This document shows, one piece after another, positions 3,431 to 52,027 of a stretch of DNA of 64,000 nt. Each line of letters opens with the position of its first letter. Within the stretch, counting starts at the first letter, position 1. This stretch comes from Promethearchaeota archaeon (GTDB lineage Archaea; Asgardarchaeota; Lokiarchaeia; Sigyniarchaeales; SOKP01). The notes beneath the pieces were generated by a model, which was not told the origin of the DNA, did not search any database, and was given only the letters and a program-made list of their open reading frames with translations. The stretch covers positions 1 to 64,000 of the forward strand of contig JBHLLU010000001.1 in NCBI GenBank assembly GCA_048938895.1. The letters are read 5' to 3'. Both the position numbers and the translations under genes were made by a program.

Positions 3431-3461
3431 TTATATTATTCATCTCAGGTTTTTTCTATAT

Positions 3462-28457: not shown

Positions 28458-28576
28458 GAAAAATCAATTCTTTTTATTTTTTCTTTTAGTTTTCAAAATT
28501 AAGTAAGTTTAAAGTTTTAGATTGAATTTTATTCATATTAAACTAGAAAAATAATCAAATTTTAGGTTTAAATCAT

Positions 28577-29767: not shown

Positions 29768-29860
29768 TATCCAATAACTTTTTTTTATATTTTTAATATC
29801 TTTTATATTAATTCGTTTTAGTTTTAATTAGAAACTTAATTTTAACGGTTGTTCACAATC

Positions 29861-30649: not shown

Positions 30650-30651
30650 TC

Positions 30652-31653: not shown

Positions 31654-31780
31654 TTTTAACCTCTTAAGTATATCTTAAATTCAGATTTCATAAATATTGA
31701 AGATAGAATTATATTAATTTATCAGAATAATTGAAGCTTAAAGGCCTCTAAGAATGTTTATTAAATACCTATAATTCTTT

Positions 31781-34935: not shown

Positions 34936-35601
34936 TTAATTGATCACTTTAAATTGAAGTTCTGTGCCATCTTTATCAAAACATTTAATATTATTTAACC
35001 TATATGGAAATCCTATGATAAAGTGAAATCTTAATCCTTTAAATATACTATTTAAATCTTGTAGTGAAGGGTGTAAAGTCCCAGAAGGATGTGAATGAAT
35101 AGTTCCTTGATAGTAGCGATTTGTAGGAAGTCTATTTATATAAAATACTCCTGAACTTCTTGATGTAACTGCACCTGGAGGCAATATAAATTCCGTGAAT
35201 ATATTTCTATCCATTTTTAGGATTCCTAAAAATTCTTTTGGATGATGTGCTCGGCATAAAGCTAAAATCCCTTCTAATAAGTCTCTTTTTATATAAACTA
35301 TGTTTGATTGTAGACTCTCTAAAATAAAAATAATTTCGTCAATAACTTTTATGATAGAATAAGTTTTTTCCAGTTTCCAATTGTTTAAAGATGAAACATC
35401 ATTCTTTAACTTTTTATAAACTTTTCCAGATTGATTAATTATCTTTAATTTTGGTCTTTTAGGATAATTAGAATAATCAATTTCTAAAATAATTCCCGTA
35501 ATTAATTCGATTTTAATATGAGTAATTTGGTTATTTACAATTACTGTATTTGGAAAATGTTCTACAATATTTTGATATTGTTTCTCAATTTCTTCACTCA
35601 T
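34936..35601 (-). CDS. UBC/RWD-like domain fused to JAB1/MPN+ (JAMM) metalloprotease
   Basis: IDYSNYPKRPKL (YPxxP of E2/RWD folds); HPKEFLG and HSHPSGTLHPSLQD (E...HxH-x10-D). Confidence 0.8.
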   Translation of the reverse strand: MSEEIEKQYQNIVEHFPNTVIVNNQITHIKIELITGIILEIDYSNYPKRPKLKIINQSGKVYKKLKNDVSSLNNWKLEKTYSIIKVIDEIIFILESLQSNIVYIKRDLLEGILALCRAHHPKEFLGILKMDRNIFTEFILPPGAVTSRSSGVFYINRLPTNRYYQGTIHSHPSGTLHPSLQDLNSIFKGLRFHFIIGFPYRLNNIKCFDKDGTELQFKVIN

Positions 35602-35678: not shown

Positions 35679-36440
35679 TTAAGTTCTTCTATGAATTATC
35701 GTTCTTATTCTTGTTACATCATCTATTGTTAAATTGCGTTTCATATTTTTTTGCTCAAATCGCATATACCCTTTATGATTAATTCCTTGGCATAGATATT
35801 TTTTTGAGTCATCAAGGATAACTTCTTTTCCAAAAATTTGAGAGTGTTCATTGTATTCTTGAATTAAGGTCTTTATCACCATTAAATTATTTTCTGTAAT
35901 TGGAGAATAATATTTATTTGCATAAAAGCATATTTTTTTAGCAAATTTATCAATAGAAACTGGCTTCTTTAGTACATCTTTTATAGATACTGACTTGGAA
36001 CTTAAGCCTTCTGGCATTTTTTTACTTGAATTATTTAAATTTACACCTATACCGATCAAAATATAATTTACTTGAGAGCTTACTATATAATCAATTAATA
36101 TTCCTGCGAGTTTTTTATTTTCATATAAGATATCATTTGGCCACTTAATTTGTGTTTTTAAATTATACTCATTTTCAATAACAAACCTTATTAATGTTGC
36201 AGTAAAAAAATGAAACAATGCTAATTGCGACTTACTCAAAGATGACGTTGATGCTCCAAGAGTAGCCCAAAAACCCCCTTCTGGAGAATACCAATCGTTC
36301 TGCTTTCTTCCACGACCCTTTGATTGTGTTTTTGCAATTAAAAGAAGAGATGAATAATAATCATATTTAAGGTAATCCATTATACTATCTTGGGTAGAAG
36401 TGGTTTGATTAATGTGGATGATCTTTATTTTTTGAAACAT
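35679..36440 (-). CDS. birA: Biotin--[acetyl-CoA carboxylase] ligase (no HTH)
   Basis: STQ, QSKGRGR...W.SP, IKWPND, KLAGIL, GIGVN. Confidence 0.95.
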   Translation of the reverse strand: MFQKIKIIHINQTTSTQDSIMDYLKYDYYSSLLLIAKTQSKGRGRKQNDWYSPEGGFWATLGASTSSLSKSQLALFHFFTATLIRFVIENEYNLKTQIKWPNDILYENKKLAGILIDYIVSSQVNYILIGIGVNLNNSSKKMPEGLSSKSVSIKDVLKKPVSIDKFAKKICFYANKYYSPITENNLMVIKTLIQEYNEHSQIFGKEVILDDSKKYLCQGINHKGYMRFEQKNMKRNLTIDDVTRIRTIIHRRT

Positions 36441-36836: not shown

Positions 36837-38408
36837 ATGACATTGAAAGATGAGAAATCTAATGATAACTTTGAAATAGCAGAAAAGTTGCAAGAGCTTA
36901 GAAATGAGTCTAAGTTAGGGGGTGGAAAAGATAGAATTGATCTTCAACATAAAAAGGGCAAATTAACTGCCCGAGAAAGAATTGAATTGTTAATAGATTA
37001 CGGTTCGTTTAATGAAATTGACTCATTTGTTAAACATCAATCTAATAATTTTGATTTAGTAGATAAGAAATTTCTCGGGGATGGAGTAATTACCGGTTAT
37101 GGTACAATAGAAGGAAGAAAAGTTTTTATTTATAGTCAAGATTTTACTGTGTTAGGGGGAACCATAGGGAAAGCTCATGCTCAAAAAATATGTAAAGTTA
37201 TGAAATTTGCTCTAAAAATGGGTTGCCCAATTATCGGTTTAATAGATTCGGGAGGAGCACGTATACAAGAAGGAGTAAATGCTTTAGATGGATTAGCAGA
37301 AATTTTTTATCAAAATGTTAGAGCATCTGGGGTCATTCCTCAGATTTCTGTTATATTAGGCATTTCTGCTGGGGGAGCTGCTTATAGCCCCGCATTAACA
37401 GATTTTATAATTATGGGTGGAAAGAATACTTCTATGTTTATTACAGGACCCGAAGTGATAAACTCGGTAACTGGTGAAAATGTCACTTTTTCAGAATTAG
37501 GAGGTTCTAAAATTCATTCGTCTGTCTCTGGTGTGTGTCATAAGGCTCTAGACACTGAAGAGGAAGCAATAGAATTCACAAAAAAATTATTATCATATTT
37601 ACCCTCAAATAATTTAGATGATGTCCCTCATTGTTTAGAAGAAATTCAAGTAGATGATGCCTATTTATTGGATCGATTGGTGCCAGAGGATGAAAATGAA
37701 CCTTATGATATGAAAAAGGTAATAGATGTAATAGTAGATCAAAATTCTTTTTTAGAACTATATCCTGAGTGGGCAAAGAATATTGTAATTGGGTTTGGGA
37801 GAATAGAGAATCAAACTGTGGGTCTAATAGCAAATCAGCCTATGTTCCTTAGTGGTGCTCTAGACTACAATGCCTCAGATAAGGCTACAAGATTTATTAG
37901 GTTTTGTGATGCATTTAACATACCTCTCCTTACATTAGTAGATGTTCCGGGTTTTTTGCCAGGAGTGAAACAAGAATATTCTGGAATTATTAGGCATGGA
38001 GCTAAAATGCTTTTTGCATATTCGGAAGCAACGGTATTAAAAATCACTGTCATTATACGAAAGGCATATGGTGGAGCTTATATTGTGATGAGTTCAAAAC
38101 AATTAGGATCTGATGTTAATATAGCCTGGAAATCAGCTCAAATTGCTGTAATGGGTGCTGAGGGTGCGTGTAAGATTTTATTTCGTAATCATTTGAATGA
38201 AGTTGAAGATCCCGATATTCTATTAAAAGATTTTAGTGAGAAATATAAGAGAGAATTTTCAAATCCTTTCCGAGTCGCAGAAAGAGGACAAGTGGATAAG
38301 GTTATCTTTCCACATGAAACTCGAAATGAAATTATTAAAAGTCTGAAATTTTTTGAATCAAAACGGAAACTGCCTCCTCGAAGAAAACATGGGATTTCTC
38401 CAGTTTAA
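36837..38408 (+). CDS. Acyl-CoA carboxylase carboxyltransferase subunit (AccD/PccB-like)
   Basis: KGKLTARERI, QDFTVLGG, DSGGARIQEG, DVPGFLPG, RKAYGGAY. Confidence 0.95.
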   Translation: MTLKDEKSNDNFEIAEKLQELRNESKLGGGKDRIDLQHKKGKLTARERIELLIDYGSFNEIDSFVKHQSNNFDLVDKKFLGDGVITGYGTIEGRKVFIYSQDFTVLGGTIGKAHAQKICKVMKFALKMGCPIIGLIDSGGARIQEGVNALDGLAEIFYQNVRASGVIPQISVILGISAGGAAYSPALTDFIIMGGKNTSMFITGPEVINSVTGENVTFSELGGSKIHSSVSGVCHKALDTEEEAIEFTKKLLSYLPSNNLDDVPHCLEEIQVDDAYLLDRLVPEDENEPYDMKKVIDVIVDQNSFLELYPEWAKNIVIGFGRIENQTVGLIANQPMFLSGALDYNASDKATRFIRFCDAFNIPLLTLVDVPGFLPGVKQEYSGIIRHGAKMLFAYSEATVLKITVIIRKAYGGAYIVMSSKQLGSDVNIAWKSAQIAVMGAEGACKILFRNHLNEVEDPDILLKDFSEKYKREFSNPFRVAERGQVDKVIFPHETRNEIIKSLKFFESKRKLPPRRKHGISPV

Positions 38409-38428: not shown

Positions 38429-41400
38429 ATGAAAAAGAAAGAAAACATCCAAAAAATTTTCAAAAACAAAATTCCTGTTTGGGGCTATTCACCTAAAGGA
38501 GTAACTGATCCCTCACTTTCAATTCAATTATGTCAAGCCGGGGGAATTGGATTAATTGATTTGGAAGGTCTTAATCAAGATCAATGTCAAAATCAAATTG
38601 ATAAACTTTTTTCATCTTTGACTTCCGATCATTTATGGGGTATTCGAATTTCTAATCACAACCTTTTAAATACCCTCAACTTTCGAGATGTTATCCCGAT
38701 TATCGTTTGTGCTTTCTCCCCAAATAAAGATGATATTCAAAGTATGCAAAAAAATTCAAAATTACTTCTTTCTGAAGTCTCATACTTAGAAGAAGCTTAT
38801 GAAACTGCAGAATGGTCAGATTTGTTTCTTGTAAAGGGTCACGAGGCGGGAGGGATTGTTGGCACTAAGAATAGTTTTATACTTATTCAAGAATTTCAGA
38901 AAGCTGGCCTTTCCTTCATTATTCAAGGTGGTTTTGGAGTTTATAATGTATGTTCAGCTTTTATTGGGGGTGCTATAGGTGTTGTATTAGAAAGCCAGTT
39001 ATATTTACTCCCTGAATGCCCGTTGAGTCCAGATTTTAAGAATTACATTAAAACTATTGATGAAAATGATTTCTATATTGTGCAAGAAACGTCTCGATAT
39101 AATTACCGTTTAATTGGTAAATTAGCTAATAAATCAATCCGTACAATAAAGAGTTTTGAACAAAAAAACTATTCAAACGTAAATAATGATTTCGATACTA
39201 ATTACTTAACTCGTAAAGATGATTTTCATCAAGTAATTAAGAAGTTTATAGATAAATTTCCTCTTTATTCTGATTCAGATCCAAAGCATTCATTCTTACC
39301 AAGCGATCATGGTATATGTTTTGCTAATTTCATTTTGACTAAATTTCAGAATTTAGAGAATTTCCTTACGAATATAATTAATATTATTACTAATCAAATT
39401 AAAAATTGTATAAACAATTGGCCATTTACCAAGAATTCTGAGTTTGCGACAAAGTTAGGCATAAAATATCCAATTATTCAGGGACCAATGGCAAATATTT
39501 CTGATAATTTGTCTTTTGCGAGAAAAATATCAAATAATGGAGCCCTCCCTATTTTAGCGCTAGGAGGACTATTACCGGACGAAACATCTGAGCTGTTATC
39601 AAACTGTAATGCTGAAAAATTATCAGAGAATCCATATGGTTGTGGTATCATAGGTTTAGATGCCGTGAAACCTCGTAGAGATGAACATCTTAGATGTATT
39701 TCAAAATTTGGTCCTGAAATTATCTTAATTGCTGCGGGTACAATTGATCTTGGCGTTCAGGTTAAAAATTCAGGTAATATAGTTTTAATCCATACACCTG
39801 CATTATCTATGTTTAAAGAGGCATTAAAAAGAAATCTTAATTACATGATATTAGAAGGTAATGAGTGTGGGGGGCATGTTGGAACACTTTCCTCTTTCAC
39901 TCTCTGGGAACATGTTTTAGAATATATGGATATAGAACGAAAGAATTTTATACAGAAAGTAAATATAATTTTTGCAGGGGGGATAATTAATGGGGTAAGT
40001 TCAGCAATGCTAGCAGGAATGATATCTAATCATTTAGATATAATCACTCCAGGTATCCAGATGGGAACTGCTTATCTTTTAAGTGAAGAAATTGTTACAA
40101 CTAAGGCATTATCCCCTGTTTATCAAGAATTACTTTTAAATAATACATTTACAAATGTTATTGGTGTTACTGTAAATACTCGAGCTAGAGTAATCCCTTC
40201 GGAATTTTCGCTTTATACTATTAAAAATGAGTATTTACGTAAATCAAATGGAATTTCTTTATCCCAAAGAAAGAAATTGTATGAAGAAGACAATTTAGGT
40301 GCTCTTAGAATTGCTTCTAGAGCTGAGATTTGGAACGAGAATCATGAAAAAGTGAGTGGGACGTCTCAATTTATACCGATCTCAACTGAAGAACAATTAA
40401 CCAAAGGTGTTTTTATGACAGGTGATTCAATTTCCCTGCAAAAAACAATTAGAAGTATCCCTCAAATTCATTCTGATATAATTGAAGAAGGTTTGAAATT
40501 TATCAGAAAAAACTCAAATTATATTTTAAAAGAGACGTTAGGTCGTGTGCCTATGAATAAAGAAAAATACTTAAAAAAAATACAATCTATCGGAAATAAA
40601 ATAGCTATTGTAGGAATGGGTGGTTTGTTTCCAGATGCCGAAAACATTCCACAATTTTGGGACAACATCATTAGCAAAAAATATTCAATTACGACAGTCC
40701 CAAAAGATAGATGGGATTCTGATATATTTTATGATAGTGATCATTCCATTCCTGATAAAACATATACAAAGATCGGTGGATTTGTGAAAAAATTTGAATT
40801 TAAATCTATTAAGTATAGAATTCCTCCTAAAATGGCGGATAGGATGGATTTAGTTCAGAAGTGGGCAATAATTACTGCAGAAGAAGCTTTAATTGATGCT
40901 GGTTATCCTATTGATGGGAAAAAACGATTATCTATAGCTACTATTGTTGGTAACTCTTCAGGAGGAGATACGCAGCGTATTAGCAACAAACGGATATTAT
41001 TTAACGAAATTAAATATAGATTAAATGAAGCAAGTTCCCAAATGATTTTAAAACCTGAAGAAAAAGAAAATCTTCTTAAATTCCTCGAAAGTAAAATTAT
41101 TAATCATATTCCTGTGATTAATGAGGATACGATGCCTGGTGAATTGGCAAACATAATTGCAGGAAGAGTAGCAAACGTGTTTAATTTAACTGGTAAGAGC
41201 ATGACTACTGATGCTGCATGTGCTTCAAGTTTAGCTGCGATTGACACAGCAGTAAACGGATTATTAGTCAAGGATTATGATACAGTTCTTGTAGGAGGGG
41301 TTGATAGTTCGATGGACCCTCAAACATATATTAAATTCTGTAAGATAGGTGCCTTGTCTGAAGATGGTACTTATCCTTTTGATTCTCGTGCAAATGGATT

Positions 41401-44400
41401 TGTCATGGGCGAGGGTGCAGGATTTATAGTTTTAAAGCGACTTGAAGATGCTTTACATGATAAGAATAAAATCTATGCGATTATTAGTGGATTTGGAGGG
41501 TCTTCAGATGGAAAAGGAAAAGGTATAACTGCACCTAATCCTGAGGGACAAAGATTAGCTATTGAGAGAACCCTGGAAAATACTAATTTAAGCCCTTCAG
41601 ACATTCAATACCTTGAGTGCCATGGAACATCAACTATTGTTGGTGATGCCACCGAATTAAGTGTATTAAGCCAAATTTTTTCTGATCGAAATGTAAATCA
41701 AAAACTTGCATTAGGCTCAATAAAAAGTCAAATAGGGCATCTTAAAAGTGCAGCAGGTATAGCTAGTATTATTAAAACGGTATTAGCGTTATATAATAAA
41801 ATCATACCTCCATCCATTAACGTTTCAAATTTAAATCCCACAATAAATTGGGAAAATGCTCCTTATTATGTGAATACGGAACCAACTAAATGGTCAACAC
41901 CTGAAAATGGAATAAGAAGAGCAGGAGTTTCCTCATTTGGATTTGGAGGTACAAATTATCATGTAATCTTAGAAGAATTTTTACCACATCTATACACAAA
42001 TGTCTTAACTGAAAGAGCTGAGGATTTTCCGTTATGTGAAGAATTAATGTATAAACAATTTGAATCTCATCAAGACAATTCTATTATTCCTTCTTCCACT
42101 GATCTATGTTTTTTATTTAGTGGTCAAGGAAGCCAATATGTTGGGATGACTCGAGAGTTATATGAAAAATATCAAGTGGTTAAAAATACACTTAATAAAG
42201 CAAATGATATATGTAAAGAGTTTGGTAGTTTTAATTTATTAAAAATCATTTTTGGGGATAATAATTTATCTCAAGAAGAAAACTCAGATAAGTTAAAACA
42301 GACAGAATTTACTCAACCAGCTATCTATTCAGTTGAGATGGCTTTAGTTAATCTATTTAAATCAAAAGGGATTACCCCAGGGATTGTTGGAGGGCATAGT
42401 TTAGGAGAATTCGCAGCTTTAGTCACAGCAGGAGTATTAAGTTTTGAGGATGGATTGAAAACAGTAATTAGAAGAGGAATTTCAATGTCTGAATTACCTC
42501 CTGGTGTTCAATGCACCATGGCAGCGATATTTACATCACCAGATATAGTTGAGAAAACCCTTAATGAGTTATCTAATGAAGATGTCTCCATTTCAAATTA
42601 TAACTCTACTTCTCAGACGGTTATATCTGGTGAAATTTCTGCAGTCGAATCTATTATGGATGCATTTTCAAAGAAAGAAATTCGAGCAATAAGATTAAAT
42701 GTTTCGAATGCATTTCATTCTAAGTATGTAGCCCACGCTGAGGAAAAATTAAAAGACTTTTTAAAAACAATTGAATTTAAATCCCCTCAAATTCCAGTCT
42801 TTAGTAACGTGACGGGAAAGGTATATCCTAATGATCCTGATAAGATAAAATCAATCTTACTTAAACAGATAACCTCTCCCGTTAGATGGGTTGACGAAGT
42901 ATTAAATATGTATCAAAAAGGAGGAAGAAAATTCTTAGAATTAGGACCAAAAAAAGCTCTTTTCTTTTTTACCAAAGATATCTTGAAAAAGTATAAAGAT
43001 ATTGAGGTTAATTTTACTCTTTCACCAAAATCTTCAGAGAAAGATCATATTCAAAAAGTTTTTGATAGGTTCTCAGCTTTAGAATCAATCAGTCAAAAAG
43101 AAAGAGTTGAAATTGAGTATCCTTCCATTAAAGATAAGAAAATAAAAATATCGAGACAAGCAGAATCATCCATTATAAAGAGAGATACTTTAAGATCGAA
43201 TGAATATTTATCTAAAATTGTGCAACTTCCATCATTTAAGGATTTTCTAGAAGAACAAAAGGTTTCTCTATCTTCTGCTTTGATGGAAGGATTTTATAAA
43301 TATCTTGAGAAGAATAGTACTTCTATTGATAATCAATTTAATAAGGGTGATATAGATTCTACTCCCATTGTAATCACGGGTGTAGGTATTGGGCTTCCTG
43401 GCAAAAATCGTAAAGTTTTTGATGATAAAAATGTAGATGATATTTTAGATGGAATAAACTTAATCGATTTGGTAAGTACAGAATCTCAAAATCAATTGCT
43501 CCAAAAAAAAATCATACGTTTGGAAAAATCTCCGAATGGTAATGCAAAATTTGTTTCTGTAGATGACATTTCTAATGTAATTCACCTAGCAGGACAACTT
43601 GGAGAATTCAATCCCAATGAAGATTACCATCTAAATCCTAAGTTGTTGAATGCCTTAGATATCACATTTCAAATGGCAATCTGTGCAGGATACGATGCAC
43701 TTAAGGATTCAGGTATTCCATTAGTCCGCAGTACCATTAAAACTTCAACAGGAAAGACTTTGAGTGGAGATTGGATATTACCAGAATCATTACAGGATGA
43801 CACTGGCATAATTTTTGCATCCGCTTTCCCAGGATACGATAATTTTGTTGAAGAATTCCGGAAATATTCTAATTTTGATTGTGATCAGAAAAAGTCTATT
43901 GAAGAAAATGATAAAAATTTTAATCGTTCATTTTTGTTCAGAGTGTTATCTATGGGGCATTCTCAGTTTGCTCAATTAATAAAAGCAAAAGGTCCAAATA
44001 CCTCTACGAATGCTGCATGTGCCTCTACTCCTCAAGCTATAGGTATTGCTGAAGATTGGATACGCAATGGAAGATGTAAACGAGTCATTGTGATTACAGC
44101 AGACAATGTAACAAGTCGTAACCTTTTTCAATGGATAGGTGCAGGTTTTATTGCTAGCGGAGCCGCTACAACTAAAAATCGATGGGAAGATGCTGTACTT
44201 CCATTTGGAGAAGGAAGGAATGGAATTATTTTAGGTGCTGGTGCTAGTGCATTCGTAATCGAACAGCAGATGGAAGCTGAAGCTCGAGGTGTTAAACCAA
44301 TTGTTGAAATATTAGGTTCATATTTCGCAAATAGTGCCTTTCATGGTACCCGATTAGATAAAGATCATATTTCTCAAAAACTCGAAGAATTTATACAAAA

Positions 44401-47400
44401 GATTGAGAGAACATATGATATTACTAGAGAAGAATTGGCAAAGGAAGGAATGTTTGTGAGTCATGAAACTTACTCTCCAGCCCGAGGAGGAAGTGCTGAA
44501 TCGGAATTGATTGCTTTAAGAAACACGTTTGGAAATTATGCTCAAGATATGGTTATTATCAACACGAAAGGATATACTGGTCATGCAATGGGGGCTGGAA
44601 TTGAAGAAGCTGTCGCTATCAAGTCACTTGAAAAAGGGAAAATCCCACCAATAGCAAATTTGAATAGAATTGACCCAAATTATTCAAATTTCAACTTTTC
44701 AGCTGGAATAAATGAAAGGAAGAAATATGCTTTACGTTTTGCTGCAGGATTTGGATCTCAATTAGCAATTGTTCTATTTCGTCTAAAGTCATTCAATAAC
44801 CGTTTTGCAAATCCAAATTACCAAAAATGGCTTCAAAGCATAGGTGGAGACGAAAAATTAATATTTATCGATGGAAGACTTCTAAAAATGAAAACTGAAC
44901 GTGTTCCCCTCAAAAAAGCTACTATCTTTTCTACAGAAACAACTGAAAGTTCCCAGAAAGTAATTCCTTCTGGAACAAGTGAAATTCTGAATGAGATCAA
45001 ATACATAATTAGTTTAAAAACTGGGTATGATCCAGCTGATATTGATGATACATTCGATTTAGAGGAAGATCTAGGAATTGATACTGTAAAACAGGCAGAA
45101 ATATTTGGTGAAATTAAAAAAAAATGGGATATTGAAGTGGATGATTCATTTAATTTAGCAGATTATCGCACAATTAATGAAATTGTCCAAATGTTGAATG
45201 ATTTCTTAAGGGTAGATCTTATAACTGAAAATGATTTTTCTTGTCTCAATGAATTTTCGCTTGAAAAAGAATTAATAAATATAATTTCTGAAAAGACAGG
45301 ATATGATATTGAAGACATCGACATTGAATTTGATTTAGAGGAGGATCTTGGGATTGATACAGTAAAACAAGCTGAGATATTTGGGGCGCTTCGGAGTAAT
45401 TTGAACATCCCAGAGGACACTGAAATCAATCTATTAGGATTAGGAAGTATTAAAAATATAATTCAAAAAATACAAGTATTAATGAGTGACAAGATTATTG
45501 ATGGAAAATTAACTCAAAATATCTATACTCCTATTGAAGTACCTGATGACATAAAACAAATAAATAATTTAGTAAAAAAAATTATTGCAGAAAAAACAGG
45601 GTATGACCTTAATGACATTGATGACTTATATGACTTAGAGGAAGACTTGGGAATTGATACAGTGAAACAGGCCGAAATCTTCGGAGAATTACGTAATCAT
45701 TACAAACTAGAAGATTCCATTGAGATTAACATATCTGAAATTCGCACTCCAAATGATATTACTCAATTTATAATGCAATATTTCAATGAGAAATCCAAAA
45801 TCGTTGAAAAAGACTTAGGAACGACTGGAAGCGTAGATAAAGTTCAAGAAGAGATAAAAGAGGAAAAACAAGATAGTATTTATGTTTCACAAGTTGTCCC
45901 CTCTCAAATTTTTAAATTAGAAACCCCAGAAATAGATTTGAAATATAAAAGTACGGATACTTTACTCCTTAATATTAATTTAGGGTTATCAAATTACGGA
46001 AAATTGATAAAAAGTTTTGAAAACTATGGCTTAAAAATTCAAGTATTAAATGTTAATAGTGATGAAAATTTTTCTAGTGATCTTAACAATAAAAAACATG
46101 ATTCTCTATTCAATACTGATTTTAAAATACTTCTATTGGTCACTCCAGATAATAATCAATACACTATAGATGATAGTTTAAGCATCTTTGATAATCTATT
46201 CCTTATTTTTCAATCATTAAATTTATCAATAATCGAAAGAATATTAGTGCTTTCTCCAGAAACTACTTTTGGTTGGGAAGAAGGAGCCAATCCTCTTTCT
46301 GCTAGTATAAGTGCCTTTATAAAAACAATAAATCGCGAATTTAAAATTCCGATTAAACTAATTTCTTCAAAGAATCTAAGTAAAATTTCTCAGGAGTTTC
46401 TTACTTGGGATACTGTTGAAGAAGTTTCCTATGTAGATAATTTTCGTTATACATTATTAAGACAGAAAATTGAGGTACTCCCAGAACAGAATCCTTTATC
46501 AATAACGGAAGAAGATGTATTATTGGTCACTGGAGGTGCACAAGGAATCACTTTTGCATGCATCGATGAATTAACAAACTATACTAAACCACAGTTAATT
46601 CTTATGGGACTAGCTTCTTACGAAAATTCATTGAACGAATATTTAAATTATACTCCAGAAATGTTGAATGAGAAAAAGCTAGAATTGGTTAACAAGTTGA
46701 AATCTGAACATAAAAGAGTAACTCCTGTCATGATAAATAAAGAATGGAAAAATTTTCTCGACAAACTAGATACTCTAAGAAATATTGAAAAATTGAGAAG
46801 TAAAGGTCTTAAAGTGCAATATTTTGCGGGGGATATTACCGATGATGAATTTGTAAGCACTACACTCCAAAAAAGTTATAAACAAAATAAAAATCCAATA
46901 ACAATTGTTATCCATGGAGCTGGAATTGAAGAATCAAAAAATTTCTTAAATAAAAAATTAAATGTGGCTCATAAAGTTGTTGATGTCAAAGTTGGAGGAT
47001 TTTCAAATATTCTGAAGCATATAAAGCTTCAAGATGTTAAATATTTCATAGCCTTCTGTTCAGTTGCAGGTCGTTATGGAAATCAAGGACAAATAGATTA
47101 TGCTTTTGCAAATTCTTATTTATCTCGGTTAGCTTGGAAATTCAATCAAGATAAAATTCCTTTTCTTATTTTTGATTGGACTGCTTGGGCTGACATTGGA
47201 ATGGCAACTCAGGGTTCGACTCTTCAAATTCTTACTCAAGCAGGTGTTAGGCCTGTCCCATCCAAAACTGGTGTTAAAATATTTACAAAGTTAGTACTAA
47301 ATAATTTTACTGGTGAATACGTCATTGCTGGAGAATTAGGAATATTTGAGGAGAAGCTTCGTATAGAGGAGGTTATTAGCAAGTTAGAATATCCTATGTT

Positions 47401-48973
47401 AGAGAGAATTAATTATCAGTCAGCTCGTATTATTGGATACAACACAATTGATTCTAAATTCGATGTATATCTTCTAGATCACCAAATTCAACGGAAACCA
47501 GTATTTCCAGGAGTAATGGTTTTAGAAACATTTGCAGAATTTTATCATCGAATGTTTGATAAACCATTAACCTCAATCTCTAATGTAAATTTTCTTACGC
47601 CCTTGAAAATCCCAATAGATAAAACTATTAATATAGAACTAATTTTTAATAAATCTAATAACGAAATTTCTTTCCAATCAAAGACTTTTCCCACTATCTT
47701 GAAAGGAAAACCTCTTGTTAAAGAACGTTTCAATGCTAAGTTCAATGAACCTACAAATGAGCTGAAGTGGAAAAAAGAATCTATTTCGGAGCCGTTAATA
47801 TCACTACTCGAGAAAACCGAAATTTATGAGCTTTTCTTTCATGGACCAAAATTTCAGGTTTTAAAAGAAGTTATTCAATTAGAAAAAGAAAAAATTGTTA
47901 CGATGGTTGACTTACCTACAGCCCCTCTTATTAATAATAAGGAGGATCAATTTCAAATTAAACCTTTGATACTTGAAAGTGTTTTTCAAACCGCTGCACT
48001 TTTTGATTTTATAATTAATGGTTATCTTTCACTTCCCTCTAAAATTTCAATCTTGAAAATATTATCAAATCAAAAGCCTAAATATATAGTCGCTAAATTT
48101 TTAAAGAGGGATGATGAGAAATCTTATTACAATTCAGTAGTGCTAAGTGAAGATCAAGAAATAATAGTAATAATGGAAAATTTAGAAATTATCCATGCAC
48201 CAATGGCAAAAAATATCTCTCCTAATCTATCTAATTATTTAGGTACATTAAAGGAGTATTATCACCTTAAAAATAACATAAATAAGCATGAGATTCATGT
48301 CCTTCCTATCACAAAGATACATAATTTATATCAAACCAATCCTAAATTTTTGGATTATTACCTTACTGAACAAGAAATAGATAACTCCAAGCGTTTTAGA
48401 AATTTAAAAAGAAAAATCGAATATTTTTCTGGAATCATCGCAGCAAAAGAATTGTATTTTAGAAATTCGTACAAGCGTGAGTCTTATCACGATATTGAAA
48501 TTCAAAAAGATGATAAAGGTAAACCATTTTATTTTTCAAATAAATTGAATCAAATTATTCCGCTTAATCTTTCAATTAGTCATTCAAACGAATTTTCAGT
48601 TGCAATTAATGGTAAAAATTTGGTTGGTATTGATCTAGAGATAATTGAATTCCGATCATCTTCATTTTACAAAGAGGTATTTACTGAATTAGAGAGAAAT
48701 GCTATTTCAGAAGATAATCAATTAGGAACAATTTACTGGACAGCTAAAGAAGCCTTCTCAAAAGCAATAGGGGAGGGTTTTAATATTAATTTTAAAGATT
48801 TTGAATTGAAATACGAGGAAAAGCACAAAAAATTCACAATATCATTCAAAAATGAAAAATCTGAATTCAATGATAATCTTAGATCTTTACAATTGGGAGT
48901 TGATTATACCAAGAAGTATGTTTTATCATATTGCGAGTTGAAACCATTTAAAGAAATTCCAACAATCCAGTGA
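38429..48973 (+). CDS. Type I FAS/PKS megasynthase: 2x FMN enoyl-reductase-like, KS, AT, second KS, 3x ACP, KR, DH, PPTase
   Basis: KGHEAGG and QGPM/EGNECGGH/GIQMGT (FabK/NMO barrels); DAACASS/HGTST/KSQIGHL (KS); GQGSQ/GHSLG/AFHS (AT); NAACAST/SHET/TGHAMG (KS2); 3x DLGIDTVKQ; TGGAQGI/DYAFAN (KR); DHQ...FPG (DH); SISHS/GIDLE/WTAKEA (PPTase). Confidence 0.95.
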   Translation: MKKKENIQKIFKNKIPVWGYSPKGVTDPSLSIQLCQAGGIGLIDLEGLNQDQCQNQIDKLFSSLTSDHLWGIRISNHNLLNTLNFRDVIPIIVCAFSPNKDDIQSMQKNSKLLLSEVSYLEEAYETAEWSDLFLVKGHEAGGIVGTKNSFILIQEFQKAGLSFIIQGGFGVYNVCSAFIGGAIGVVLESQLYLLPECPLSPDFKNYIKTIDENDFYIVQETSRYNYRLIGKLANKSIRTIKSFEQKNYSNVNNDFDTNYLTRKDDFHQVIKKFIDKFPLYSDSDPKHSFLPSDHGICFANFILTKFQNLENFLTNIINIITNQIKNCINNWPFTKNSEFATKLGIKYPIIQGPMANISDNLSFARKISNNGALPILALGGLLPDETSELLSNCNAEKLSENPYGCGIIGLDAVKPRRDEHLRCISKFGPEIILIAAGTIDLGVQVKNSGNIVLIHTPALSMFKEALKRNLNYMILEGNECGGHVGTLSSFTLWEHVLEYMDIERKNFIQKVNIIFAGGIINGVSSAMLAGMISNHLDIITPGIQMGTAYLLSEEIVTTKALSPVYQELLLNNTFTNVIGVTVNTRARVIPSEFSLYTIKNEYLRKSNGISLSQRKKLYEEDNLGALRIASRAEIWNENHEKVSGTSQFIPISTEEQLTKGVFMTGDSISLQKTIRSIPQIHSDIIEEGLKFIRKNSNYILKETLGRVPMNKEKYLKKIQSIGNKIAIVGMGGLFPDAENIPQFWDNIISKKYSITTVPKDRWDSDIFYDSDHSIPDKTYTKIGGFVKKFEFKSIKYRIPPKMADRMDLVQKWAIITAEEALIDAGYPIDGKKRLSIATIVGNSSGGDTQRISNKRILFNEIKYRLNEASSQMILKPEEKENLLKFLESKIINHIPVINEDTMPGELANIIAGRVANVFNLTGKSMTTDAACASSLAAIDTAVNGLLVKDYDTVLVGGVDSSMDPQTYIKFCKIGALSEDGTYPFDSRANGFVMGEGAGFIVLKRLEDALHDKNKIYAIISGFGGSSDGKGKGITAPNPEGQRLAIERTLENTNLSPSDIQYLECHGTSTIVGDATELSVLSQIFSDRNVNQKLALGSIKSQIGHLKSAAGIASIIKTVLALYNKIIPPSINVSNLNPTINWENAPYYVNTEPTKWSTPENGIRRAGVSSFGFGGTNYHVILEEFLPHLYTNVLTERAEDFPLCEELMYKQFESHQDNSIIPSSTDLCFLFSGQGSQYVGMTRELYEKYQVVKNTLNKANDICKEFGSFNLLKIIFGDNNLSQEENSDKLKQTEFTQPAIYSVEMALVNLFKSKGITPGIVGGHSLGEFAALVTAGVLSFEDGLKTVIRRGISMSELPPGVQCTMAAIFTSPDIVEKTLNELSNEDVSISNYNSTSQTVISGEISAVESIMDAFSKKEIRAIRLNVSNAFHSKYVAHAEEKLKDFLKTIEFKSPQIPVFSNVTGKVYPNDPDKIKSILLKQITSPVRWVDEVLNMYQKGGRKFLELGPKKALFFFTKDILKKYKDIEVNFTLSPKSSEKDHIQKVFDRFSALESISQKERVEIEYPSIKDKKIKISRQAESSIIKRDTLRSNEYLSKIVQLPSFKDFLEEQKVSLSSALMEGFYKYLEKNSTSIDNQFNKGDIDSTPIVITGVGIGLPGKNRKVFDDKNVDDILDGINLIDLVSTESQNQLLQKKIIRLEKSPNGNAKFVSVDDISNVIHLAGQLGEFNPNEDYHLNPKLLNALDITFQMAICAGYDALKDSGIPLVRSTIKTSTGKTLSGDWILPESLQDDTGIIFASAFPGYDNFVEEFRKYSNFDCDQKKSIEENDKNFNRSFLFRVLSMGHSQFAQLIKAKGPNTSTNAACASTPQAIGIAEDWIRNGRCKRVIVITADNVTSRNLFQWIGAGFIASGAATTKNRWEDAVLPFGEGRNGIILGAGASAFVIEQQMEAEARGVKPIVEILGSYFANSAFHGTRLDKDHISQKLEEFIQKIERTYDITREELAKEGMFVSHETYSPARGGSAESELIALRNTFGNYAQDMVIINTKGYTGHAMGAGIEEAVAIKSLEKGKIPPIANLNRIDPNYSNFNFSAGINERKKYALRFAAGFGSQLAIVLFRLKSFNNRFANPNYQKWLQSIGGDEKLIFIDGRLLKMKTERVPLKKATIFSTETTESSQKVIPSGTSEILNEIKYIISLKTGYDPADIDDTFDLEEDLGIDTVKQAEIFGEIKKKWDIEVDDSFNLADYRTINEIVQMLNDFLRVDLITENDFSCLNEFSLEKELINIISEKTGYDIEDIDIEFDLEEDLGIDTVKQAEIFGALRSNLNIPEDTEINLLGLGSIKNIIQKIQVLMSDKIIDGKLTQNIYTPIEVPDDIKQINNLVKKIIAEKTGYDLNDIDDLYDLEEDLGIDTVKQAEIFGELRNHYKLEDSIEINISEIRTPNDITQFIMQYFNEKSKIVEKDLGTTGSVDKVQEEIKEEKQDSIYVSQVVPSQIFKLETPEIDLKYKSTDTLLLNINLGLSNYGKLIKSFENYGLKIQVLNVNSDENFSSDLNNKKHDSLFNTDFKILLLVTPDNNQYTIDDSLSIFDNLFLIFQSLNLSIIERILVLSPETTFGWEEGANPLSASISAFIKTINREFKIPIKLISSKNLSKISQEFLTWDTVEEVSYVDNFRYTLLRQKIEVLPEQNPLSITEEDVLLVTGGAQGITFACIDELTNYTKPQLILMGLASYENSLNEYLNYTPEMLNEKKLELVNKLKSEHKRVTPVMINKEWKNFLDKLDTLRNIEKLRSKGLKVQYFAGDITDDEFVSTTLQKSYKQNKNPITIVIHGAGIEESKNFLNKKLNVAHKVVDVKVGGFSNILKHIKLQDVKYFIAFCSVAGRYGNQGQIDYAFANSYLSRLAWKFNQDKIPFLIFDWTAWADIGMATQGSTLQILTQAGVRPVPSKTGVKIFTKLVLNNFTGEYVIAGELGIFEEKLRIEEVISKLEYPMLERINYQSARIIGYNTIDSKFDVYLLDHQIQRKPVFPGVMVLETFAEFYHRMFDKPLTSISNVNFLTPLKIPIDKTINIELIFNKSNNEISFQSKTFPTILKGKPLVKERFNAKFNEPTNELKWKKESISEPLISLLEKTEIYELFFHGPKFQVLKEVIQLEKEKIVTMVDLPTAPLINNKEDQFQIKPLILESVFQTAALFDFIINGYLSLPSKISILKILSNQKPKYIVAKFLKRDDEKSYYNSVVLSEDQEIIVIMENLEIIHAPMAKNISPNLSNYLGTLKEYYHLKNNINKHEIHVLPITKIHNLYQTNPKFLDYYLTEQEIDNSKRFRNLKRKIEYFSGIIAAKELYFRNSYKRESYHDIEIQKDDKGKPFYFSNKLNQIIPLNLSISHSNEFSVAINGKNLVGIDLEIIEFRSSSFYKEVFTELERNAISEDNQLGTIYWTAKEAFSKAIGEGFNINFKDFELKYEEKHKKFTISFKNEKSEFNDNLRSLQLGVDYTKKYVLSYCELKPFKEIPTIQ
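44980..45785 (+). repeat. Three tandem ACP-domain repeats within the megasynthase
   Basis: KTGYD...DLEEDLGIDTVKQAEIFG repeated three times; Thr codons at 45083, 45359 and 45659. Confidence 0.9.
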
Positions 48974-49761
48974 TAGTAATGAGAAAAGAAGTGATTGAAG
49001 TAGAAGTTCGATCTGAAATTCTGCAAGGAGTACTCTATTTACCTGATGAAAAAGATCCAAAAATTAGTGAATGTAATCCATTTCCAATCGTGATTCGTGT
49101 TAATGGAATGCCTGGTAAATCTCCCGAAGAAGATGAAACGAGATTTGCCCATCTTTTTGTTAACAATGAATTTGCTTATTTCACTTATGATCACCAAGGT
49201 GTGAGGAAAAGTACCGGTATTTTTACTTATTATGACGCTCAAGCAAATATCGAAAATGTAATAAATCAGTTAGTGCATCATCCTGAGATGAATCCTATTA
49301 AAATTGGCCTGTTAGGAGAAAGTTTTGGGGGTGCAATGGCTTTTTGCCATACTGTAAGAGATAAACGTGTTAAATGTCTTGCTATACGTTCTCCTGTTTT
49401 TGATACAGAAATTATTCCAAAGAATCCTCTTTTTAAATTTTTCATCAAAGCATTAACACGTAATAAAAAAATGCGATTTCCCGAAGGAGATCTCAAAAAA
49501 AAGTATGCTGAACAAACAAGACAATATAATCCCAATAGATTAGCGGATAAATTAGCAAAACCTTTCTATCTGATTGCAGGAAATAAGGATGTTTTATTTC
49601 CAGAATCTGGTTTTCATCAACTCTTTAATAAAGTCAAGTCTGAAAATAAAAAAATTGAAATAATTGATGGAGCTGATCATAACTTTACAGATAAAAATCA
49701 TTTTCACCTAATGCGTAAAAATATTATTGATTTCTTTAGATTTCATCTTATAGTAAATTAA
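48970..49761 (+). CDS. Alpha/beta hydrolase, putative standalone thioesterase
   Basis: GESFG nucleophile elbow, GNKD, GADHNF triad; start overlaps the synthase stop (GTGA). Confidence 0.8.
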   Translation: MIVMRKEVIEVEVRSEILQGVLYLPDEKDPKISECNPFPIVIRVNGMPGKSPEEDETRFAHLFVNNEFAYFTYDHQGVRKSTGIFTYYDAQANIENVINQLVHHPEMNPIKIGLLGESFGGAMAFCHTVRDKRVKCLAIRSPVFDTEIIPKNPLFKFFIKALTRNKKMRFPEGDLKKKYAEQTRQYNPNRLADKLAKPFYLIAGNKDVLFPESGFHQLFNKVKSENKKIEIIDGADHNFTDKNHFHLMRKNIIDFFRFHLIVN

Positions 49762-49773: not shown

Positions 49774-50271
49774 ATGCCGAAAAAAGTTAAATTTCGAGGA
49801 AGGAATTATATAGTTACTCCATTAGATAATGGGAAAATAAAAGTAGATGACCATATTTATGCCCCGGTAGTCATTCAAGAAACAGAGAATTTATTTCGAG
49901 TAACATTTGAAGATTGTCAGTTTAATTTGGAATTTATAAACGGGGTTTTATATTTAGAGGGTGAAGAAATCGATATTGAAATTAAACCATATTTAAAATC
50001 AGTAGATAATAACTATGAAAGCCCACAAATCACGGACGTAATTATAAAAGCTCCTATTCCAGGGAAAATATTAGAAATCCACGTCGAAGAGGAGGAATAT
50101 ATCGAAAAGGAACAGTTATTATTAATTTTAGAAGCAATGAAAATGAAAAATCGAATATTGTCTCCAAGAAAAGGGAAGATAATCCAAATATTAGTGAATG
50201 AAGGGGATATCGTTGGACAAGATCAAAAGTTAATTAAAATTGAAAGTAGAAATAATGTAAAGGGTATATAA
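49774..50271 (+). CDS. accB: Biotin carboxyl carrier protein
   Basis: APIPGKI, LEAMKM biotinylation motif, GDIV. Confidence 0.93.
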   Translation: MPKKVKFRGRNYIVTPLDNGKIKVDDHIYAPVVIQETENLFRVTFEDCQFNLEFINGVLYLEGEEIDIEIKPYLKSVDNNYESPQITDVIIKAPIPGKILEIHVEEEEYIEKEQLLLILEAMKMKNRILSPRKGKIIQILVNEGDIVGQDQKLIKIESRNNVKGI

Positions 50272-50292: not shown

Positions 50293-51783
50293 TTAACGTA
50301 TTTGCTCTATTTTAGCGACATCTCGCCATTTATTTGATTTTTTCTTTTGTGTTTCTTCAGGTTGAGTTGATAATTTAAATTGCTTAAATAATTGAAAAAC
50401 TGCTGCCAATTTTTTTCTTTCTAAATCTTTTAAATTATTAGCAATGTTTGTTTTATTTAAGAAATCAGTTGATAAATCTCCCTTTCTAAATTCACGAGAA
50501 TCTACTATTACTTTATGTAAATCTAAATTCGTTTTTATTCCTGAAATAACTAATTCTTTTAGGGTATGTTTAGAGAGATTGATTGCCCTTTTTCGATTTC
50601 TACCCCACACCACCAATTTCCCTATCAATGAGTCAAAATCATGAGGAACTACATAATTAGGGTACAAATAACTATCAAAACGCACTTTTGGTCCCCCTGG
50701 TATGATTAAATTTGTAATTTTTCCATGTTGGGGAAAGAATGAATTATATGGATCTTCAGCATTTATCCTATATTCTATAGCATGTCCATGTAATGAGATT
50801 TCCTCTTGAATATAATTTAATGGTTTATTTGAGGCAATGCTTATTTGTTCCTCAACCAAATCTATTCCTGTTACCATTTCTGTAACAACATGTTCTACTT
50901 GGATTCTTGGATTTACTTCATTAAAATAGATATTACCCTCCTTCCATAGAAATTCTGCTGTTCCCACATTTGAATAATTTAATTCACGAGCTAACTGACA
51001 AGTTTTATCTCCTAATTTAGAGATTTCATCCCTTGTTAAAAATGAGGGTGCTTCCTCAATAAGTTTTTGATGAGATCGTTGGATAGTACATTCCCGATCT
51101 CCTAAATATATAATATTACCAAAATTATCTCCAATAAATTGAATTTCTACATGACGAGGTGCCATAATAGACTTTTCAATAAAAACTTCATTGCGACCAA
51201 AAAACTTTGATCCCATTTCTTGACAACCTTGGAGTGCAATGCCCATTTCTTCTTCAGATTCAACAATTTCCATTCCTCGACCACCACCTCCAAAGGCTGC
51301 TTTTATTATTACAGGATATCCGATCTTATCTGCTATTAATTTAGCTTCCTCTAAACTACGAATAAATCCATCTGAACCAGGTAAAACGGGTAAACCGACA
51401 CTTTTTGCTAGGATTTTTGCTTTAATTTTATTACCTAAAAATTCAATGGTATTTGGGCTTGGACCGATAAAAATCTTACCAAGATTAATAATTTGTTTTG
51501 CAAATTCTGCATTTTCGCTCAAAAAACCATATCCTGGATGGATTGCATCTGCATCACACCGTTTAATTATTTCAACTAGTTTTGAGATGTTAAGATATGT
51601 ACCCTGAATTGATTCATCTCCTAAATTATATGCCTCATCTGCCATTTTTACGTGAAGAGAGTTTTTGTCTGACTCAGAAAAAATTGCTATTGATTTAATC
51701 TCTTTTGATCGACATGCTCTGATAACTCTAACTGCAATCTCTCCACGATTAGCAATTAAGACAGATTTGATCATACAACACAA
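50293..51783 (-). CDS. accC: Biotin carboxylase
   Basis: LIANRGEIAVR, HPGYGFLSEN, GGGGRGM, RECTIQR, EVNPRIQVEH, RINAEDP. Confidence 0.96.
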   Translation of the reverse strand: MCCMIKSVLIANRGEIAVRVIRACRSKEIKSIAIFSESDKNSLHVKMADEAYNLGDESIQGTYLNISKLVEIIKRCDADAIHPGYGFLSENAEFAKQIINLGKIFIGPSPNTIEFLGNKIKAKILAKSVGLPVLPGSDGFIRSLEEAKLIADKIGYPVIIKAAFGGGGRGMEIVESEEEMGIALQGCQEMGSKFFGRNEVFIEKSIMAPRHVEIQFIGDNFGNIIYLGDRECTIQRSHQKLIEEAPSFLTRDEISKLGDKTCQLARELNYSNVGTAEFLWKEGNIYFNEVNPRIQVEHVVTEMVTGIDLVEEQISIASNKPLNYIQEEISLHGHAIEYRINAEDPYNSFFPQHGKITNLIIPGGPKVRFDSYLYPNYVVPHDFDSLIGKLVVWGRNRKRAINLSKHTLKELVISGIKTNLDLHKVIVDSREFRKGDLSTDFLNKTNIANNLKDLERKKLAAVFQLFKQFKLSTQPEETQKKKSNKWRDVAKIEQIR

Positions 51784-51895
51784 TAATGAAAGCTAATTAT
51801 TATAGCTATGCTATTAATTAAATAAACAAGTATTTTATTAAAAAATATCATTTTTTTTAATATTTGAGGAAACGATTTTAACGATTTTAAATTTT

Positions 51896-52027
51896 AAGTT
51901 ATTTTCTATGGGAGGATCTTTAACATCAGAAGAAATATTATCTGAAATCAGAATCCTTAAAGGTCCCTCATTCTGGTAAAAAGGAATTAATTACTCATCT
52001 GATTAAATATATAATTTAGAACAGTTT
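51896..52027 (+). pseudogene. Decayed copy of the pepF 3' end
   Basis: Translates KLFSMGGSLTSEEILSEIRI-LKGPSFW*KGINYSSD*IYNLEQF versus PepF C-terminus KLLSIGGSMTPEEMLTEIGIDLRDSSFWQKGINFLSGKIDELEQL (from 34779). Confidence 0.85.

Follow-up and report, generated by a model that had tools for sequence, protein, structure and literature searches.

Here, we describe a megasynthase of an Asgard archaeon and the gene cluster in which it is encoded. The gene lies in a 64,000-nucleotide stretch of DNA (hereafter, the window) from a Promethearchaeota archaeon of the lineage Lokiarchaeia, Sigyniarchaeales (assembly GCA_048938895.1, contig JBHLLU010000001.1, positions 1 to 64,000 of the forward strand). 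Our analysis suggests that the encoded protein is an iterative, self-activating, PfaA-like type I fatty-acid/polyketide synthase, related to the bacterial clusters known as Type R, which is embedded in a conserved, self-sufficient gene cluster, makes an acyl chain that is fully or largely saturated and is accessory in its genus, a reading to which we assign a probability of roughly two in three.

One polypeptide with a full set of active sites

The megasynthase is encoded by a single intact open reading frame (ORF) of 3,514 aa, with an ATG start and zero internal stops. Scans with Pfam and NCBIfam profiles, run on the protein both whole and in pieces, gave the domain order pseudo-enoyl reductase (psiER), enoyl reductase (ER), ketosynthase (KS) 1, acyltransferase (AT), KS2, three tandem acyl carrier proteins (ACPs), structural ketoreductase subdomain (psiKR), catalytic ketoreductase (KR), dehydratase (DH) and phosphopantetheinyl transferase (PPTase; Table 1). 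These scans bear out the domain list of a preliminary description of the locus, namely, two FabK/nitronate-monooxygenase-like barrels at the N-terminus, KS1, AT, KS2, KR, DH and a C-terminal PPTase, together with its view of a one-gene synthase, and they add to that list the three tandem ACPs and a threonine at the position of the modified serine. The label Pfa-like was likewise well chosen: the top NCBIfam match of the whole protein is PfaA (TIGR02813), although its score of 882.5 bits lies under the curated cut-off of 1010.1.

Residue conservation was assessed domain by domain in alignments of the 120 best full-length-range homologues (n = 78–120 per domain), and the catalytic residues were likewise invariant in a separate alignment of 17 diverse full-length Asgard and bacterial members (17/17). 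In KS1, C931, H1065, K1099 and H1104 are each conserved in 116 of 116 homologues; KS2 keeps C1864, H2012 and H2052 in 120 of 120 and K2047 in 119 of 120, and its Cys, His, Lys and His occupy the catalytic columns of solved FabF structures (2gqd, 8z5c). Thus, KS2 retains an active site, as the preliminary description had held, and the motifs which it quoted for KS1, AT and KS2 are all present and invariant in the relatives. The AT residues S1324 (GHSLG), R1349 and H1430 (AFHS) are conserved in all 119 homologues aligned, and the KR residues S2878, Y2891 and N2895 in all 112. In the DH, H3018 is found in 92 of 92 sequences, and E3183 of the E3183-x3-Q3187 motif is Glu in 72 of them and Asp in 20.

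KS1 and KS2 share only 23% identity and are, therefore, not recent duplicates. As PfaA and PfaC suggest by the analogy of their own KS domains, the most plausible arrangement for two complete ketosynthases with separate ancestries is a division of labour, between priming and elongation or between chain-length ranges. Besides the megasynthase, some Asgard genomes contain stand-alone ORFs of ~500–560 aa that are 45–54% identical to KS2 alone (in our genome and contig labels, G003:C1:136697-138184, G092:C171:9961-11442, G160:C197:4697-6187, G086:C12:45915-47435 and G054:C8:519589-520920).

Because the protein has one AT, one reductive loop (KR, DH, ER) and tandem ACPs, with no modular repetition, it is best understood as an iterative synthase; the combination of tandem ACPs with a single reductive loop is described as a hallmark of iterative Pfa-type lipid synthases in the accessible text of PMC3098273.

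Threonine at the phosphopantetheine site

Each of the three ACPs reads G-I-D-T-V-K-Q-A-E, and the canonical serine of the PF00550 D-S-L/I motif is present in none of them. The threonine aligned to the D-S of the solved ACPs 5y08, 6lvt and 1klp, the same column of 1f80_D being printed as X. This substitution is a property of the whole family: threonine occupies the position in 355 of the 362 motif matches from the 120 homologues (5 have serine, and the other 2 lie outside the ACP region) and in 234 of 240 from 73 further loci, with the motif G-I-D-T-V-K-Q-A/V-E almost invariant from Acidobacteriota through Asgard archaea. Two Heimdallarchaeum loci (L046, L053) combine 2 serine ACPs and 1 threonine ACP within one protein. 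In L053, the megasynthase is split over two ORFs, and the PPTase, hydrolase and biotin carboxyl carrier protein (BCCP) are present twice.

The C-terminal domain has the features of an Sfp-type (group II) PPTase, i.e., ~230 aa, two ACPS-like halves, a TIGR00556 match in two stretches and the Mg/CoA motifs G-x-D-x-E and W-x-x-K-E-A, here GIDLE (D3402/E3404) and WTAKEA (K3440/E3441). D3402, K3440 and E3441 are conserved in all 78 homologues and E3404 in 77 of 78. A PPTase gene or domain accompanies the threonine ACPs in most loci. We infer that this cognate PPTase would modify the ACP threonine; if so, this would explain why it is fused to, or encoded beside, the synthases in most loci. Furthermore, the built-in domain is the only match of the ACPS profile in the host genome, so that the self-activation proposed in the preliminary description is plausible.

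To our knowledge, all studied carrier proteins bear the cofactor on serine, and the E. coli ACP variant S36T is, as far as we know, not modified by AcpS. Together with the replacement of serine in all three ACPs, this raises the possibility that the protein is dead as a carrier-dependent enzyme and is either a relic or serves some other role. We consider this very unlikely, given that threonine is almost universal in the family, that the other catalytic residues and those of the PPTase are conserved, which implies selection on activity, that a PPTase gene or domain stands beside the ACPs in most loci, and that a mixture such as the 2 serines and 1 threonine of Heimdallarchaeum is what would be expected if both residues were accepted. 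A single, narrowly worded search returned no paper on a threonine-linked ACP, which is a weak negative, and the words threonine and serine do not occur in the main text of the paper that catalogued Type R (PMC3098273).

A two-barrel head with one reductase active site

The second of the two N-terminal barrels (ERb) matches the FabK profile hidden Markov model (HMM) with an E-value of 7e-21 over HMM positions 3–305 of 307 (74.8 bits, against an equivalog cut-off of 453.1). It aligned to solved FabK over almost the entire FabK length and, like solved FabK, retains QGPMA and E-x-E-C-G-G-H; H483 is conserved in 102 of 102 homologues. The first barrel (ERa) is a more distant match (E 5.7e-8, HMM positions 8–248 of 307; phmmer E 1.1e-5 to solved FabK). 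It reads HEAGGIVG where ERb has ECGGHVG and is devoid of both the catalytic His and QGxMA. Indeed, the column equivalent to this His contains no His in any of 85 ERa homologues (R in 30, K in 18, I and L in 9 each, M in 8, W in 6, others in the rest), although ERa keeps invariant residues of its own in the alignment of 17 diverse members.

Structure prediction, which the preliminary description had named as a check, was run on this didomain. An alignment of 26 sequences served to build the AlphaFold model of aa 1–710, which is confident (pLDDT 91.8, pTM 0.94) and FabK-like, implying that the two barrels would form one compact body. In a Foldseek search with this model, FabK chains were the best matches (TMt 0.84–0.89), and PfaD and the trans-AT ERs matched less well (TMt 0.51–0.61; PfaD alone, 0.51–0.56). 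ERb is, thus, predicted from its sequence to be a FabK-type, FMN-binding (flavin mononucleotide) enoyl reductase, whereas ERa is probably a structural pseudo-reductase that takes, next to ERb, the place of a second FabK-like subunit. The duplicated FMN enoyl-reductase head of the preliminary description, then, stands with respect to the two barrels and falls with respect to two working copies.

A self-contained gene cluster

The megasynthase gene lies within a cluster in the order biotin-protein ligase, acyl-CoA carboxylase carboxyltransferase (CT), megasynthase, alpha/beta hydrolase, BCCP and biotin carboxylase (BC), and this order is repeated across Asgard families. Among 19 Asgard loci with the ER-fused gene, drawn from several families, CT is directly upstream in 18, and in the 19th the contig starts inside the megasynthase gene; the hydrolase is adjacent in 13, and 5 of the other 6 loci are cut by contig ends. 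The GTG start of the hydrolase overlaps the megasynthase stop codon, and the conserved Met corresponds to an ATG at 48979, 5 nt past the stop. The hydrolase motif G-E-S-F-G-G and the Asp and His of the triad are kept in 14 of 14 sequences. To judge from these family assignments, the cluster is equipped with a ligase for its cofactor, a source of substrate, an activator for its carriers and a probable release enzyme.

Table 1. Positions in the window of the megasynthase, its domains and the adjoining cluster genes
Feature	Position	Strand	Details
Biotin-protein ligase, BirA catalytic type	35679..36440	-	family match; conserved neighbour
Acyl-CoA carboxylase CT, PccB/MmdA-like	36837..38408	+	stops 20 nt before megasynthase start
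Megasynthase	38429..48973	+	3,514 aa; psiER-ER-KS1-AT-KS2-ACPx3-psiKR-KR-DH-PPTase
ERa	38429..39433	+	aa ~1-335; Pfam NMO 36.0 bits (cut-off 28)
ERb	39434..40543	+	aa ~336-705; Pfam NMO 54.9 bits; QGPMA, E-x-E-C-G-G-H
KS1, PfaA-type	40571..41998	+	aa 723-1132; ketoacyl-synt family total 254.5 bits; KAsynt_C_assoc
AT, FabD-like	42071..43063	+	aa 1228-1528; 152.7 bits; FabD HMM 245.7 bits (cut-off 260.9)
KS2, divergent FabF-like	43286..44713	+	aa ~1640-2080; Pfam 52.8 bits; FabF HMM E 1e-36
Three tandem ACPs	44966..45784	+	aa ~2180-2452; Pfam PP-binding, 3 stretches
ACP Thr codons	45083-45085, 45359-45361, 45659-45661	+	phosphopantetheine Ser column
Structural KR subdomain and catalytic KR	45926..47248	+	aa ~2500-2940; 99.4 bits
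Double-hotdog DH, polyketide synthase (PKS) type	47381..48268	+	aa ~3004-3254; PKS_DH_N and PS-DH
Sfp-type PPTase	48281..48970	+	ACPS aa 3349-3502, 70.6 bits in two stretches; AASDHPPT_N
Alpha/beta hydrolase	48970..49761	+	GESFGG-Asp-His triad; candidate chain-release enzyme
BCCP	49774..50271	+	family match; conserved neighbour
BC	50293..51783	-	family match; conserved neighbour

Several features flank the cluster. Upstream lies a beta-oxidation-like set at 27111-33010 (+), comprising a thiolase, an acyl-CoA dehydrogenase, the beta and alpha subunits of an electron transfer flavoprotein and an SCP-x-type thiolase (31781-33010); L042, L043, L044 and L047, the four closest relatives, have this last thiolase immediately beside their biotin ligase. 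In the window, an M3 oligopeptidase gene (33138-34928) and a JAB-domain gene (34936-35601) are located between this thiolase and the biotin ligase. Just beyond the BC gene, at 51878-52027 (+), there is a remnant of an M3 oligopeptidase C-terminus with 2 TAA stops, 54% identical to residues 541–592 of the intact copy, and in a same-genus genome (L027/L042) an intact M3 gene occupies the remnant's spot. This remnant points to a local rearrangement at the edge of the cluster.

Relatives and distribution

The closest homologues, with 65–76% identity along their full length, come from archaea labelled at their source as Candidatus Hodarchaeota or Promethearchaeota, followed by those of Harpocratesius (52%), Heimdallarchaeota (44–50%), and Desulfobacterota and other bacteria (30–38%). 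A pattern scan of species-representative genomes found at least 599 stretches, 597 of which were confirmed to encode relatives. We compared layouts by segment-wise BLAST of 120 homologues and 77 loci. The full layout of the window gene is shared by Asgard archaea, one Thermoplasmatota metagenome-assembled genome (MAG) and several Desulfobacterota-type bacteria. In a second layout, that of Desulfobacteraceae and Spirochaetes, an additional KS follows KS1, and the PPTase is not fused. The third layout lacks the ER (KS1-AT-KS2-ACPn-KR-DH, with the PPTase fused or downstream, often behind a BC-like gene) and is found in Acidobacteriota, Chloroflexota, Actinomycetota, Calditrichota, Myxococcota, Bacteroidota, others and some Asgard families. 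The architecture, which the preliminary description had called unusual, is accordingly not unique: an identical layout recurs in dozens of Asgard proteins, as well as in proteins of Desulfobacterota and other bacteria.

Within the Asgard phylum, a survey with aa 1–2114 as the query detected the megasynthase in 36 of 201 sampled genomes. Its distribution is patchy: by our family codes, it is present in 20 of 21 genomes of f5, 7 of 7 of f14 (in the ER-less form), 3 of 3 of f27 and 2 of 3 of f2, and in the family of the window (f1) in 1 of 40 other genomes, that is, 2 of 41 in all. KS2 was found in 9 of 54 genomes of the window's genus. The cluster is accessory in the genus.

In an unrooted FastTree phylogeny of KS1, AT and KS2 (69 rows, with composition-heterogeneity warnings), the window sequence forms a clade with L042, L047, L044, L043 and L045 (support 100), which is sister to a Heimdallarchaeota clade (support 99); the Thermoplasmatota rows, like a second clade of Heimdallarchaeota, have other positions in the tree. 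The main Asgard clade is weakly linked to Desulfobacteraceae (58) and stands apart from a large clade of Acidobacteriota and Chloroflexota, including a Korobacteraceae MAG, which it joins through weak deep branches (58); the tree was built from our homologues, without the reference sequences of the Type R paper. What the tree supports is exchange between bacteria and archaea, in one direction or the other, followed by spread or loss within the Asgard phylum.

Host genome and fate of the product

The host genome (4.65 Mb, 98.74% complete, 7.49% contamination) was searched with family profiles. The FabF HMM recovered KS1 and KS2 alone, besides two 22-bit matches elsewhere, and the PP-binding HMM recovered only the three megasynthase ACPs; the CT and the biotin ligase of the cluster are the sole matches to Carboxyl_trans and BirA, respectively. 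Profile searches gave no match to FabA/FabZ or PlsX in this genome. To judge from the profile matches, ACP-dependent lipid machinery is confined to the cluster in these Asgard genomes.

We rejected the explanation that the contig is bacterial and was mis-binned. Full-length orthologues of the M3 peptidase that flanks the cluster, with 68–75% identity, were recovered from 10 of 12 further genomes in the genus, the contig also carries Ras GTPases, and a same-genus genome has the cluster beside the same flanking genes. The three genes for Ras-family small GTPases, a typical eukaryote-like signature of Asgard archaea, lie at 55967-56521, 61150-61713 and 61867-62418 (+), and the two that were scanned match Pfam Ras with 135–142 bits. 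Interleaved with them are genes for two large winged-helix and tetratricopeptide-repeat (TPR) proteins, at 53245-55140 and 56534-59068 (-), and farther upstream, at 22014-25412 (-), a histidine kinase of 1,132 aa that has several PAS domains is encoded. The GC content, 0.29–0.33 over the cluster and 0.26–0.35 in the flanks, gives no compositional sign of recent transfer.

What becomes of the acyl chain? One scenario is that it passes to PlsY/PlsC-type acyltransferases, giving de novo ester-linked glycerolipids of the bacterial and eukaryotic type. In its favour, the genome has the megasynthase as its sole ACP-dependent synthase machinery and also contains two PlsY-like and two PlsC-like genes; PlsY is present in 34 of the 36 megasynthase-positive and in 30 of the 165 negative Asgard genomes, although these genomes are related and the counts are not independent; and in two genomes (G074 and G026) a PlsY paralogue lies ~3 kb from the cluster. 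Furthermore, plsY and plsC have been noted in Asgard genomes, the source of the fatty acids being unnamed in the accessible text (PMC13400652). However, the cluster is accessory in the genus, in the window's family and in the phylum; PlsY occurs in 21 of 40 genomes of the family, just one of them with the megasynthase; no PlsX that would provide acyl-phosphate was found; and the host genome encodes GGGPS of the archaeal ether-lipid pathway (196 bits). A cultured Lokiarchaeon also gave only archaeal lipids, albeit by a method that may have missed ester lipids, as far as the accessible text of PMC13400652 goes. The search for a glycerol-1-phosphate dehydrogenase with Fe-ADH_2 was uninformative, with matches of 30–36 bits only. 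On this evidence, supply of membrane fatty acids is quite unlikely and ranks second to the function that we put first, an accessory (secondary) fatty-acyl lipid synthase.

The acyltransferase genes have peculiarities of their own. One PlsY-like protein has 402 aa, of which only the N-terminal ~190 aa match the family (L038:829-2037, G000 contig C104). Two long PlsY-like genes stand in tandem, and frames of 402–425 aa are typical of the window's family, compared with ~240 aa in other Asgard families. One PlsC-like protein of 555 aa has two acyltransferase domains (L039:481-2148, G000 contig C53).

Proposed mechanism and its implications

We propose that the biotin ligase of the cluster would activate BCCP, and that BC, BCCP and CT would together turn acetyl-CoA into malonyl-CoA. 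The Sfp-type PPTase would place phosphopantetheine on the conserved threonine of the three ACPs, and the FabD-like AT would load malonyl units onto them. KS1 and KS2, both complete and unrelated to each other, would carry out the condensations, probably sharing priming and chain-length ranges, and each round would be fully reduced by the KR, by the DH of PKS type and by ERb, the one FabK-type FMN reductase that is active, with ERa probably buttressing ERb. Finally, the adjacent Ser-Asp-His hydrolase would release or transfer the chain.

Several points weigh against this scheme. Our literature search returned no biochemical data for any member of the family. The canonical serine is absent from all ACPs, and the enzyme would be inactive if threonine cannot be modified. 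The putative release enzyme is a generic alpha/beta hydrolase to which no thioesterase family was assigned, and it was not found beside bacterial Type R genes or in the 6 of 19 Asgard loci mentioned above. The best family of the CT is methylmalonyl-CoA decarboxylase alpha/PccB-like (712.5 bits, under the cut-off of 998.8), so that its substrate could be propionyl-CoA, or the complex could be running as a decarboxylase. A search for RNA sequencing runs over 38429-48428 found none. Lastly, there is the contamination of the genome bin.

The setting gives the proposed synthase its interest. Archaea seem to encode neither of the fatty-acid synthases (FAS) I and II, and ACP and ACP synthase are missing from nearly all of them, according to the accessible text of a 2024 preprint (10.1101/2024.07.05.601840). 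A possible PKS has been noted in one Heimdallarchaeota MAG (PMC7472256, accessible text). We found no description of this Asgard megasynthase in the literature searched; subscription journals and supplementary files lay outside that search, and an earlier tabulation is possible. In the main text of PMC8813620, 'fatty acid' occurs once, and polyketide, ketoacyl, acyl carrier and malonyl do not occur; in that of PMC10307638, none of these five terms does. The preliminary description had envisaged that the architecture might prove to be that of a characterised bacterial family with a known product; no characterised product was found, and in a family as large as this one, the product is still unreported fifteen years after the cataloguing.

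Asgard archaea are the archaeal relatives of eukaryotes, and in some of their families, the megasynthase is near-universal among the sampled genomes. Because the synthase is complete and apparently functional, with its own malonyl-CoA supply, the capacity of Asgard archaea for fatty-acid synthesis, and its purpose, can be tested directly by heterologous expression. If confirmed, threonine at the phosphopantetheine site would add a new form to a post-translational modification that is universal. The boldest possibility, unlikely but worth stating, is that some Asgard archaea carry a complete ACP-dependent pathway for de novo fatty-acid synthesis in one transferable cluster of biotin ligase, acetyl-CoA carboxylase, self-activating type I synthase and releasing hydrolase, with phosphopantetheine attached to threonine by a dedicated PPTase and products feeding PlsY/PlsC ester lipids. 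If so, archaea, on their side of the lipid divide, would have a candidate enzyme for building fatty-acid membranes, and the ACP and PPTase would make an orthogonal pair.

Comparison with known systems

The most direct structural counterpart of the ER is FabK (2z6i, 5gvh, 7l00, 9pl0), with which ERb shares the TIM-barrel fold in the predicted model, QGxMA and the GGH motif. Unlike FabK, ERb is fused into the megasynthase behind a second, His-less barrel.

The reductase of fungal FAS is a FabK-type TIM-barrel FMN enzyme as well, and fungal FAS includes an integrated PPTase. These two features, common to both systems, had led to the notion of a fungal-FAS-like design, and could be taken to mean that the archaeal enzyme is related to fungal type I FAS or is a hybrid of it. 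We find this hardly credible. The fungal domain order is AT-ER-DH-malonyl/palmitoyl transferase (MPT) / ACP-KR-KS-PPT (PPT denoting the PPTase), and the order found here is ER-ER-KS-AT-KS-ACP3-KR-DH-PPT. Moreover, KS, AT, KR and DH match PKS/PfaA-type families, the close relatives are all prokaryotic PfaA-like proteins, and the best matches listed, whether by structure or by sequence, include no fungal FAS. The resemblance is, then, an analogy only, with no specific relation seen.

The likeness to the PfaA-E synthases of polyunsaturated fatty acids (PUFA) goes deeper, comprising the iterative type I organization, PfaA-type KS and AT, tandem ACPs, KR, PKS-type DH, an FMN-type ER and an Sfp-type PPTase. 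Given that PfaA is also the best-matching family, that the FMN-type ER recalls PfaD and that the PPTase recalls PfaE, one might regard the megasynthase as a PUFA synthase condensed into one polypeptide, with a PfaA-E-like product. That is most improbable. The score falls short of the PfaA cut-off, no FabA-type DH/isomerase was matched in the ORF or the genome, and there is no Cys-less chain-length factor (CLF), the KS2 Cys being present in every homologue. The ER is nearer to FabK than to PfaD in the structural comparison above. Unlike PfaA-E, the megasynthase is a single polypeptide and possesses neither a PfaC-type KS-CLF nor a FabA-like DH pair. Its ACPs also differ: those of Pfa synthases carry LGIDS and those of the megasynthase threonine. 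Because the capacity for full reduction is combined with the lack of a FabA-type DH and of a Cys-less CLF, a saturated or largely saturated chain is the more probable product of the iterative synthase that we favour.

The closest parallel is the Type R cluster catalogued by Shulse & Allen in 2011 (PLoS One 6:e20146, PMC3098273), with the layout KS-MAT (malonyl-type AT)-CLF-ACP(3-6)-KR and a downstream PPTase. In the accessible text of that paper, Type R is reported in Koribacter, Solibacter, Elusimicrobium and Roseiflexus, with an uncharacterised product, and in Koribacter, an acetyl-CoA carboxylase (ACC) gene separates the synthase and the PPTase. The window protein follows the same order (KS1-AT-KS2-ACPx3-KR) and has a partner PPTase, which is fused here and which many bacterial loci encode downstream in an ORF of its own; the association with an ACC gene is shared, too. 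In layout, the ER-less form corresponds to Type R of PMC3098273, and the window gene is a fused archaeal variant, so that what the preliminary description called unusual had, in its core of KS-AT-KS-ACPn-KR and PPTase, already been catalogued. The Type R-like loci of Acidobacteriota, Chloroflexota, Actinomycetota and others run KS1-AT-KS2-ACPn-KR-DH / BC-like / PPT, and their proteins align to residues ~725–3460 of the window protein with 29–38% identity. Around the ER-less Type R genes of bacteria (L058-L119), BLAST with the window ER segments (E <= 1e-6) detected no FabK-like ER up to 10 kb away. Either these bacteria use a reductase in trans, or their product is reduced less fully.

ER-fused bacterial relatives occur in Desulfomonilaceae, Thermodesulfobacteriota and Syntrophaceae MAGs, with 31–38% identity and the layout ER(ER)-KS1-AT-KS2-ACPn-KR-(DH)-PPT. 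Their ACPs have threonine, and BirA, CT and the hydrolase are mostly not adjacent. The Desulfobacteraceae form with the third KS is possibly identical with the Type S cluster of Desulfobacterium autotrophicum, as far as this is described in the accessible text of PMC3098273.

Unlike Type R, the window protein has the N-terminal FabK-like didomain and the fused PPTase, and its locus adds the full CT/BCCP/BC set, the biotin ligase and the hydrolase in an archaeal host that lacks type II FAS. The second KS of Type R was labelled a chain-length factor (PMC3098273, accessible text), whereas KS2 here keeps the complete Cys-His-His. The core architecture has been known since 2011; what is new here is the self-contained cluster of ACC and synthase in Asgard archaea and the family-wide threonine.

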